Origin: a virus
Taxonomy: Duplodnaviria; Heunggongvirae; Uroviricota; Caudoviricetes
Strand: one strand, 5' to 3'
Length of the DNA: 9,544 nt
IMG/VR virus record: IMGVR_UViG_2684622619_000007
Part shown: in pieces, positions 1,568 through 6,180 of the stretch
Position numbering within the stretch: position 1 is the stretch's first letter
Layout: every line of letters starts with the position of its first letter
Translations under genes and position numbers: made by a program
The notes under the pieces: generated by a model
Told to the model about the DNA's origin: nothing
Database searches by the model: none
The model's input: the letters and a program-made list of their open reading frames with translations, nothing else

Positions 1568-1766
1568 AATGTTGCCCCATATTCAGTGTTGCTGATTTGT
1601 ATTATCTGAAGTTGCTTTTACGTTAATTTGATGCAGATCAATTAATACGATACCTGCGTCATAATTGATTATTTGACGTGGTTTGATGGCGTAGATGCAC
1701 GTTGTGACATGTAGATGATAATTATTATCATTTTGCGGGTCCTTTCCGGCGATCCGACCGGTTACG

Positions 1767-1778
1767 GGGCGGCGACCT
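1767..1778 (+). other. cosN: cosN cohesive-end sequence (12-nt GGGCGGCGACCT), found in the joined state
   Basis: GGGCGGCGACCT is preceded by ...gatccgaccggttacg and followed by cgcgggttttcgctatttatgaaaattttccgg, which matches the lambda right-end/left-end junction as I recall it. A GATAAT-T-ATTATC palindrome sits at 1717-1729, where the lambda cosQ region would be. Confidence 0.9.
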
Positions 1779-1817
1779 CGCGGGTTTTCGCTATTTATGA
1801 AAATTTTCCGGGGAAAA

Positions 1818-1829
1818 TCATGTCGGTAC
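1818..1829 (+). promoter_or_regulatory. cosB repeat 1 (R3-like position): TCATGTCGGTAC, candidate small-terminase binding site
   Basis: First of three copies of a TCATGTCGG(A/T) motif between cosN and nu1. It lies 52-63 nt from the cos left end, comparable to lambda R3. Confidence 0.55.
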
Positions 1830-1875
1830 TTCTCGAACATAACTATTTGTTTTTTCTAATATCGAATCCGTAAAG

Positions 1876-1886
1876 GTCCGACATGA
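1876..1886 (-). promoter_or_regulatory. cosB repeat 2 (R2-like position, inverted): reverse complement is TCATGTCGGAC
   Basis: GTCCGACATGA on the + strand. Its inverted orientation relative to repeats 1 and 3 mirrors the lambda R3/R2/R1 arrangement. Confidence 0.55.
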
Positions 1887-1917
1887 AAACGCCTGAAAAA
1901 GTCATTTTCGGGCACTT

Positions 1918-1928
1918 TCATGTCGGAC
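1918..1928 (+). promoter_or_regulatory. cosB repeat 3 (R1-like position): TCATGTCGGAC
   Basis: Third copy of the motif, 26 nt upstream of the nu1 ATG. Confidence 0.55.
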
Positions 1929-1953
1929 CCTGTATTTGTTGTGAGACTGTTTC

Positions 1954-2473
1954 ATGAAGGTTAATAAAAAGAAACTTGCCGAAATTTTCAACGTGGATCC
2001 GCGAACGATTGAACGCTGGCAGTCTCAGGGGCTCCCTTGCGTCTCCGGAGGTGGTAAGGGCGTTGAATCTGTATTTGATACCGCCACGGCAATTCAGTGG
2101 TATGCGCAGAGGGAAGCTGATATCGAAAATGAAAAACTCCGTAAAGAGGTTGAGGATTACAGGGCTGCCAGCGAGGCAGATCTCCAGCCTGGGACTATTG
2201 AGTACGAACGCCATCGACTTACGCGTGCGCAGGCTGACGCCCAGGAGCTGAAGAATGCCAGAGACTCCGCAGAAGTGGTGGAAACCGCATTCTGTACTTT
2301 CGTGCTGTCACGGATCGCAGGTGAAATTGCCAGTATTCTTGACGGGATCCCTCTCTCAGTACAGCGGCGTTTTCCGGAACTGGAAAACCGACATGTTGAT
2401 TTCCTGAAACGGGATATTATCAAAGCCATGAACAAAGCAGCCGCGCTGGATGAACTGATACCGGGGTTGCTGA

Positions 2474-2499
<26 letters not shown>
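1954..2499 (+). CDS. nu1: Terminase small subunit (Nu1-like), 181 aa, mosaic: N-terminal third differs from lambda Nu1, remainder lambda-like
   Basis: ATG at 1954, TGA at 2497-2499. The C-terminal two thirds ([54 protein letters not shown]...LSEYIEQS) match lambda Nu1 as I recall it. The N-terminal region ([41 protein letters not shown]...) is related but clearly different; the GGGKG motif is retained. First gene after cos, 3' end overlaps A. Confidence 0.93.

Positions 2500-6180
<3,681 letters not shown>

Follow-up and report, generated by a model that had tools for sequence, protein, structure and literature searches.

A phage 21-like cosB and DNA-binding-domain cassette in the packaging module of a lambda-like Escherichia coli prophage

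How does a prophage whose packaging genes look like those of lambda come to carry cosB repeats and a small terminase N terminus that do not, and what does this combination mean for packaging specificity? A sequence-only reading of this locus had proposed that the DNA-recognition part of the small terminase (Nu1, or TerS) was exchanged together with the sites that it reads, while the interface between Nu1 and gpA was kept. We followed up this proposal in the window, by which we mean the whole 9,544-nucleotide stretch that was analysed. Based on the ORF listing and database comparison, the window is the start of the late operon of a lambda-like E. coli prophage, with the gene order ybcV/ybcW/ylcI-like, cos, Nu1, gpA, W, B, C/Nu3, D, E, FI. 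It is 95 to 100% identical to lambda nearly throughout, the exceptions being ~1417-1516 (a scaffold gap), ~1812-2165 and a short patch at 2490-2540. Both cosQ and cosN are common to lambda and phage 21, and mutual packaging is >1000-fold poorer (PMC4669245). We consider it highly probable that this interval serves as the packaging-initiation module of a lambda-like prophage, in which a ~350-bp phage-21-like block confers the initiation specificity of phage 21.

Layout of the cos region and the exchanged block

The phage 21 features (R4/cosQ, cosN, I2, R3, I1, R2, R1 and gene 1) were mapped onto the window from the annotation of M81255 by four-way alignment, which gave the following layout together with the terminase genes.

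1736-1747 (+): cosQ region ("R4" in M81255), CGGGTCCTTTCC, shared without differences by the window, phage 21 and lambda
1750-1796: cosN region, as the M81255 annotation maps onto the window
1767-1778 (+): cosN cohesive-end 12-mer, GGGCGGCGACCT, an exact match to the lambda and phage 21 ends
1796-1810 (+): I2, between cosN and cosB, lambda-type, TATGAAAATTTTCCG, equal to lambda and with 2 differences from phage 21
~1812-2165 (+): exchanged phage-21-like cassette, comprising cosB (R3-I1-R2-R1) and Nu1 codons 1 to ~63-72
1816-1831 (+): R3 box, AATCATGTCGGTACTT, bp 50-65, aligning with M81255 R3 at 15/16 positions
1838-1852 (-): I1, putative IHF site between R3 and R2, aligning with M81255 I1
1873-1888 (-): R2 box, inverted, reverse complement TTTCATGTCGGACCTT, bp 107-122, 16/16 against phage 21 R2
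1916-1931 (+): R1 box, TTTCATGTCGGACCCT, bp 150-165, 14/16 against phage 21 R1
1954-2499 (+): Nu1/TerS, whole gene, 181 amino acids
1954-2142 (+): Nu1 codons 1-63, winged helix-turn-helix DNA-binding domain, 21-type, 56/63 residues as in phage 21 gp1 and 38/63 as in lambda
2143-2169 (+): junction, Nu1 codons 64-72 (EVEDYRAAS), DNA identity 61% with phage 21 and 57% with lambda, so that neither parent fits well
2170-2499 (+): Nu1 codons 73-181, lambda-type oligomerisation and gpA-binding part, 107/109 residues as in lambda and 54/109 as in phage 21
2474-4399 (+): gpA/TerL, lambda-type, with a GTG start that overlaps the end of Nu1, 98.1% identical to lambda gpA

The left side of the locus is lambda-type. 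Base pair 1 of the mature left end is window position 1767, and at the informative sites, defined as positions where lambda and phage 21 differ, identity to lambda runs from cosN to bp 44-45 (window 1810), in agreement with the earlier description of cosN and the first ~45 nt as lambda-type. The cosQ element upstream is required for packaging termination (PMC4669245, PMC9026076).

Within cosB, three repeats had been described in forward, inverted and forward orientation. A search of the 9544-bp window for the 9-nucleotide sequence TCATGTCGG gave exactly three matches, which lie at 1818-1826 (+), 1878-1886 (-) and 1918-1926 (+) and have T, A and A, respectively, as the tenth base. By chance 0.12 matches would be expected, and a count of 3 was reached in 0 of 200 shuffles. 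A repeat finder recovered the same repeat relations and placed R2 and R1 within a longer imperfect palindrome with 25-nt arms. Given that the repeats coincide with R3, R2 and R1 of M81255, they are the R boxes of a phage-21-type cosB. The order R3-I1-R2-R1, the inversion of R2, the spacing and the positions relative to the left cohesive end are all those of phage 21. The boxes depart from those of phage 21 at one position of R3 (bp 54, where G is replaced by A) and at two positions of R1. The change at bp 54 brings R3 into agreement with phage 21's own R2 and R1, and the R1 of the window is found without differences in the prophages F11 and 52F4 and in phage IdasGreatGrand. The repeat motif had also been called unlike the lambda R site; this goes slightly too far, given that the 16-bp box is homologous to the lambda R site and matches it at ~9/16 positions. 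The putative I1 contains AAACAAATAGTTA at 1840-1852 (-), one mismatch from the IHF consensus WATCAANNNNTTR, a degree of similarity that is reached 6 times in the window versus 6.2 times expected.

The full-length Nu1 protein belongs to the Pfam family PF07471 (Phage_Nu1; 303 bits against a cut-off of 30) and matches the structures 6HN7, 7LWR and 1J9I with E-values from 1e-42 to 1e-23. Roughly 75 N-terminal residues had been reported to differ from lambda at many positions, and we found 46/75 of residues 1-75 to be identical. Identity to the solved DNA-binding domain of phage 21 TerS (PDB 7LWR, residues 1-54) is 48/54, or 89%, and the recognition helix at residues 17-24, RTIERWQS, is the same as in phage 21 gp1. 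Compared with phage 21, residues 1-63 carry seven substitutions: R7K, A30V, K32G, S34G, I37V, M45T and T55A. Three of these, at residues 32, 34 and 37, fall within the DNA-contacting wing or next to it and make the wing lambda-like (GGGKG; SGGGKG versus SKGSKG), and K35, the minor-groove contact residue, is conserved. The wing of TerS is described as contacting the minor groove (PMC9026076). A literature search for papers on PDB 7LWR, 7LXS and 7LW0 returned nothing relevant.

Downstream of the junction, the 107/109 residues shared with lambda Nu1 and the 98.1% identity of gpA agree with the proposal that the C-terminal two thirds of Nu1 and all of gpA are lambda-type. The gpA protein carries the Pfam domains GpA_ATPase and GpA_nuclease. 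A small additional mosaic patch at gpA residues 8-21 accounts for 6/12 of its differences from lambda.

The extent of the foreign block follows from the informative sites, which are lambda-type up to 1810, 21-type from 1812 to ~2145, mixed from 2148 to 2165 and lambda-type again from 2169. Sliding identities concur, given that the flanks are 95 to 100% lambda-like and ~1812-2165 just 53 to 62%. At the DNA level, cosB (1813-1953) is 81% identical to phage 21 and 53% to lambda, and Nu1 codons 1-63 are 92% identical to phage 21 and 62% to lambda. The abrupt switch in identity argues that the block, which holds both the R sites and the DNA-binding domain, differs in ancestry from its flanks. The proposed exchange of a recognition domain with its sites is thus visible as a single 21-type block, from 1812 to ~2145-2165, between lambda-type flanks. 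Given that the N terminus of Nu1 is identical to lambda at 46/75 residues rather than at 95% or more and that cosB 1813-1953 is only 53% lambda-like, the covariation argument made from the sequence alone stands.

Since bp 18 and 24 are polymorphic among lambda-type prophages too, the left junction can be assigned to the conserved cosQ-cosN-I2 block but no more finely. The right junction comes after a conserved stretch encoding IENEKLR and falls at Nu1 residues 64-72, where the solved DNA-binding domain ends (the lambda domain in PDB 1J9I covers residues 1-68) and upstream of the oligomerisation and gpA-binding parts, which is where the sequence-only reading had drawn the boundary between DNA binding and gpA interaction. 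Codons 64-72 are 100% identical in F11, EC4115 and IdasGreatGrand, that is, in every mosaic copy examined. The sharing of a stretch that matches neither reference suggests a single ancestral recombination event whose partner was a 21-like relative and not phage 21 itself. The cassette most likely entered via homologous recombination in the conserved sequences that flank it, cosN-I2 upstream and the IENEKLR-coding stretch downstream. A donor search for a 21-type prophage near-identical to the cassette found no 21-type relative above ~92% identity. The prophages 52F4 and W13-16, which have a 21-type C terminus and window-like R boxes, were rejected as donors given that their DNA identity is only 79 to 91%, and F11 turned out to be the same mosaic.

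Discriminating positions and natural distribution

The discrimination between lambda and phage 21 has been ascribed to the recognition helix and the R sites, specifically to bp 56 and 59 of R3 and to residues 20 and 24 of TerS (cited in PMC4669245), and Glu24 of lambda clashes with the G:C pair at bp 56 of phage 21 R3 (PMC4669245). The window compares as follows at these positions.

R3 bp 56: G in the window (1822), G in phage 21, T in lambda
R3 bp 59: G in the window (1825), G in phage 21, C in lambda
TerS residue 20: E in the window, E in phage 21, Q in lambda
TerS residue 24: S in the window, S in phage 21, E in lambda
Helix residues 17-24: RTIERWQS in the window, RTIERWQS in phage 21, RTIQNWQE in lambda

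The discriminating base pairs (G:C at bp 56 and 59, where lambda has T:A and C:G) and the helix residues are therefore all 21-type. We collected further TerS variants and read the DNA upstream of each for R cores, which gave three pairings.

Helix RTIQNWQE/D with R core CGTTTCC: lambda, an O157 nohD-type prophage, a Citrobacter prophage
Helix RTIERWQS with R core TGTCGG: phage 21, the window, F11, IdasGreatGrand, 52F4, W13-16, an Enterobacter roggenkampii prophage
Helix RTITTWQS with R core AGATCC: Enterobacter sp. PTB and one metagenomic contig (Gifsy-1-like cohesive end)

At all loci collected, each helix type lies beside its own R core, and the type of the C terminus assorts independently. 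The 21-type domain is joined to a 21-type C terminus in phage 21 and 52F4 and to a lambda-type C terminus in the window, F11, IdasGreatGrand and the E. roggenkampii prophage. This constant pairing of helix and R core, together with the independent C terminus, confirms the cassette argument on independent natural examples. Sp4 and Sp14 of O157 Sakai, whose cos/Nu1 regions have been aligned to lambda (PMC2669165, Fig. S8), were rejected as instances of the mosaic and have a fourth N-terminal type.

The mosaic is widespread. In a megablast search of window 1700-2500 against phage records, M81255 was the only named classical phage to cover the divergent part, and one full-length near-identical record was found, that of phage IdasGreatGrand, which is 98.8% identical and has the same mosaic with the same junction. 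IdasGreatGrand is an isolated, plaque-forming phage from swamp mud, and the combination therefore supports a viable phage. Among complete E. coli genomes, window 1700-2500 is present in 557 of 5426 (~10%) at a coverage of at least 80%, and 392 records are at least 99% identical to it. The carriers are mostly O157:H7 and O121 and also include the uropathogenic F11; in closed genomes, for example, EC4115 and TW14359, the interval is 100% identical. The Nu1 protein falls in an 837-member cluster that includes RefSeq entries labelled just "terminase small subunit". The complete phage 21 version, with cosB and all of gene 1, is present in 650 of the 5426 genomes.

Alternative readings of the locus

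The window comes from a draft scaffold with 50 Ns at 1438-1487, which are flanked by a 48-nt near-duplicate. To the left of this gap, an O157:H7 prophage with a lambda-type cosB and nohD matches the sequence at 100%, and to the right, as far as ~3000, the 100% match is to the mosaic prophage of EC4115. The whole window was found contiguous in no complete genome, which suggests that the scaffold may join two different O157 prophages. Both prophage types are present at different loci in the same O157:H7 chromosomes, with A to FI ~99 to 100% identical.

The gap, with sides that match different O157 prophages, could indicate that the mosaic itself is an assembly artefact in which reads of two co-resident prophages were merged into a chimeric contig. 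However, the gap lies to the left of the entire cassette, 1700-2500 is 100% identical in the closed EC4115 and TW14359 genomes, and an independently sequenced phage isolate matches it at 98.8%. We rejected this explanation, which we regard as extremely improbable, because hundreds of complete genomes have identical junctions. Divergence in place, by fast co-evolution of the domain and its sites within the lambda lineage, would not require any exchange and would fit both the codons 64-72 that resemble neither parent and the failure to find a close donor. It would have to account for a fall in lambda identity at each edge, from 95-100% to 53-62% over no more than a few bases, synonymous sites included, for a rise over the same interval to 81 to 92% identity with phage 21, and for the occurrence of the same block of domain and R sites with 21-type C termini in 52F4 and phage 21. 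We therefore consider in-place divergence very unlikely and favor the acquisition of a 21-like block.

Given an acquired block, the cassette might still set a packaging specificity that is distinct from those of both lambda and phage 21, or broader, through its lambda-like wing and R boxes that are uniform at CATGTCGG. Phage 21 has other residues at wing positions 32, 34 and 37, in a part of the protein that contacts the minor groove (PMC9026076), bp 54 of R3 differs as well, and the cassette DNA is just 81 to 92% identical to phage 21. Nevertheless, the recognition helix at residues 17-24 is that of phage 21 and K35 is kept, the genetically defined bp 56 and 59 are 21-type, R2 matches at 16/16 positions, and the change at bp 54 only makes R3 resemble phage 21's R2 and R1, all of which makes a specificity other than that of phage 21 improbable in our view. 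It is similarly improbable that the module is an inert relic here, intact in sequence but part of a defective element, so that its specificity would be without effect today. Most lambdoid prophages of O157 have a defect in one function or another (PMC2669165), and the regulatory and tail regions of this one lie outside the window. In contrast, the ORFs from Nu1 to FI are all intact and 98 to 100% identical to functional lambda genes, a plaque-forming phage has the same module, and defective O157 prophages are still packaged in trans (PMC2669165).

We also considered that the cassette could amount to more than another phage 21 allele, by way of packaging insulation, mixed-TerS interference or a shifted or broadened specificity, which we judge to be rather unlikely. 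Co-resident O157:H7 prophages have virtually the same TerL, TerS C-terminal domain and head genes, and their cassettes are lambda-type versus 21-type. The swap of a cassette may have been selected to insulate the packaging of such prophages from each other. Mixed TerS oligomers are possible because the oligomerisation domains are 98% identical, and they could cause interference between prophages, by analogy with Rpp-TerS hijacking.

Predicted packaging behaviour and relation to known systems

At the sequence level, the locus is a mosaic with 21-type R boxes, a 21-type recognition helix and a lambda-type TerS C terminus and TerL. Its cassette is predicted to be of the phage 21 specificity class, a packaging specificity that we read from these features and from the precedent of a laboratory hybrid. 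Extrapolating from published work on lambda and phage 21, 21-type winged-helix dimers would bind the TGTCGG-core R boxes, and an IHF-induced bend at I1 would unite R3 and R2 (PMC9026076, PMC4669245). The lambda-type C-terminal part of TerS would bind gpA and hold this lambda-type protein over cosN, 47 bp away, and the anchored gpA would nick cosN and start packaging and translocation. Termination would need just cosQ, cosN and I2, irrespective of the type of cosB, and would be expected to work at any cosQ-cosN. The resulting phage would have lambda heads and a lambda TerL with the initiation specificity of phage 21; it would package its own DNA, and packaging by or of a lambda-type cosB would be expected in neither direction.

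A natural 21-type cassette in a lambda backbone is thus real, but it is also ordinary, common and already understood, and its significance for basic biology is small. The difference between the cosB and TerS of lambda and phage 21, the N-terminal location of specificity and the ability of a chimeric TerS to work have reportedly been known since the 1980s and were refined up to 2015-2022. No paper explicitly describing a natural lambda/21 TerS chimera was found in our literature search. The natural mosaic adds modest points, one of them being the frequency of the module, which ~10% of complete E. coli genomes carry, with an enrichment in O157:H7 and O121. Enterohemorrhagic E. coli (EHEC) chromosomes contain prophages that have near-identical head and TerL genes and are predicted to differ in packaging specificity, and such differences bear on which defective prophages get packaged in trans and, hence, on the movement of virulence genes between strains. 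For annotation, the type of cosB could be called from the R core and the recognition helix, a procedure that would be easily automated.

Compared with lambda (1J9I, 6HN7), the module has the same architecture, spacing, fold and Pfam family, and the C-terminal two thirds of Nu1 and gpA are essentially those of lambda; the R core CGTTTCC and the helix RTIQNWQE of lambda are what set it apart. N15, the hybrid lambda-N15 hy4 and Gifsy-1-type cosB are further cases in which cosB and the N-terminal domain of a lambda-like TerS change together. N15 also has a lambda-like C-terminal part, but it differs in its single R site and unrelated N-terminal sequence. The Enterobacter class with RTITTWQS and AGATCC is unlike the window in both its R core and its cohesive end. 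Phage 21 (M81255; 7LWR) shares the layout of the R boxes, their distances from cosN, the TGTCGG core, G56 and G59, the helix and 56/63 domain residues. It differs at 7 domain residues and 3 R-box bases, and the C-terminal 109 residues of Nu1, gpA and the cosN-I2 segment of the window are lambda-type.

The closest counterpart is the hybrid lambda-21 hy51, which is said to originate from Frackman, Siegele and Feiss in 1985. In this hybrid, as in the window, the phage 21 cosB and the 5' part of gene 1 are fused in frame to the 3' part of Nu1 and accompanied by lambda gpA. Lambda-21 hy51, whose chimeric gene takes its 5' half from gene 1 and its 3' half from Nu1, is viable and 21-specific and serves as a standard 21-specific helper (PMC4669245, PMC9026076). 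The earlier suspicion that the locus represents a described variant class is borne out by this shared architecture and by the phage 21 specificity class (PMC4669245, PMC9026076). Unlike the window, hy51 is the product of a cross in the laboratory, and its phage 21 left-end DNA amounts to ~600 bp, including about half of the gene. The cassette in the window is shorter, ends at codons 64-72, leaves the sequence lambda-type through bp 45 and derives from a 21-like relative. The natural mosaic therefore represents the same cut as the laboratory hybrid, made more tightly, where the DNA-binding domain ends in the solved structure.

Two cosB types beside one head-gene module

Each of three E. coli O157:H7 chromosomes (NZ_CP015020.1, NZ_CP022050.2 and NZ_CP038416.1) harbours two prophages at different loci, one with lambda-type cosB/nohD and one of the 21-type mosaic kind. 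The A-W-B-C-D-E-FI genes of these co-resident prophages are ~99-100% identical between both types; their TerS proteins share 98% identity over the C-terminal part. One shared head and TerL module would thus bear two packaging specificities in these chromosomes. Yet another Nu1 N-terminus, MATQTEVARHLSLTDRQLRRLQ..., has been reported next to a conserved cosQ-cosN in the O157 Sakai prophages Sp4 and Sp14 (PMC2669165 Figure S8), and thus at least three TerS DNA-binding-domain types are found within a single EHEC genome.

The window itself contains a scaffold gap, a run of 50 N at 1438-1487 with a 48-nt near-duplicate on both sides (flanks 1390-1437 and 1488-1537). The part left of the gap matches an O157:H7 prophage carrying lambda-type cosB/nohD (L010) at 100% identity, and the part from the gap rightwards to ~3000 matches the mosaic prophage of EC4115 (L004), again at 100%. 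The entire window was found in one contiguous piece in no complete E. coli genome, so two lambdoid prophages may have been mis-joined in the scaffold.

We also observed a third, small mosaic patch at window 2495-2536, covering gpA residues 8-21 and Nu1 residue 181. The gpA patch reads IDILRRD..A in the window versus VNRLRHF..S in lambda and the co-resident nohD-type prophage, and the last Nu1 residue (181) is D instead of G. This patch is common to EC4115 and phage IdasGreatGrand and is absent from strain F11 despite the same 21-type cassette. The gpA N-terminal region in which it lies has been reported to bind TerS.

Other combinations of recognition helix and cohesive end

The helix RTITTWQS represents a third recognition-helix class. 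Its partner R boxes, three in number, have the core AGATCC (L012:1317-1503; in L014, the DNA preceding the gene that starts at 1501). These loci, from Enterobacter sp. PTB and a metagenomic contig, have the Gifsy-1-like cohesive end GGGCGGCAGCGG, and their DNA-binding domain is fused to a lambda-type TerS C-terminus (86-89% identity).

The R boxes, DNA-binding domain and C-terminus are all 21-type in the prophages of E. coli 52F4 and O139:H1 W13-16 (L007:250-560 and L008:250-560). Both retain cosQ (GGGTCCTTTCC) and have GGGTCATAGCACGCGC in place of the lambda cosN 12-mer, which would fit a cos that has decayed or one with another cohesive end.

Reading frames and palindrome at cos

Three mechanical ORFs lie over cosQ-cosN-cosB in the window:
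1715-1873, plus strand, mechanical ORF
1583-1840, minus strand, mechanical ORF
1918-2214, minus strand, mechanical ORF

The IdasGreatGrand record has one ORF across cosQ-cosN-cosB labelled 'hypothetical protein' (L002:8862-9140); the cos site has probably been miscalled there as a gene.

R2 and R1 are contained in an imperfect palindrome (window 1875-1929) that reaches far past the 16-bp boxes themselves. Its 25-nt arms show 88% complementarity and have a 5-nt spacer between them. An analogous arrangement is present in lambda at the same position.
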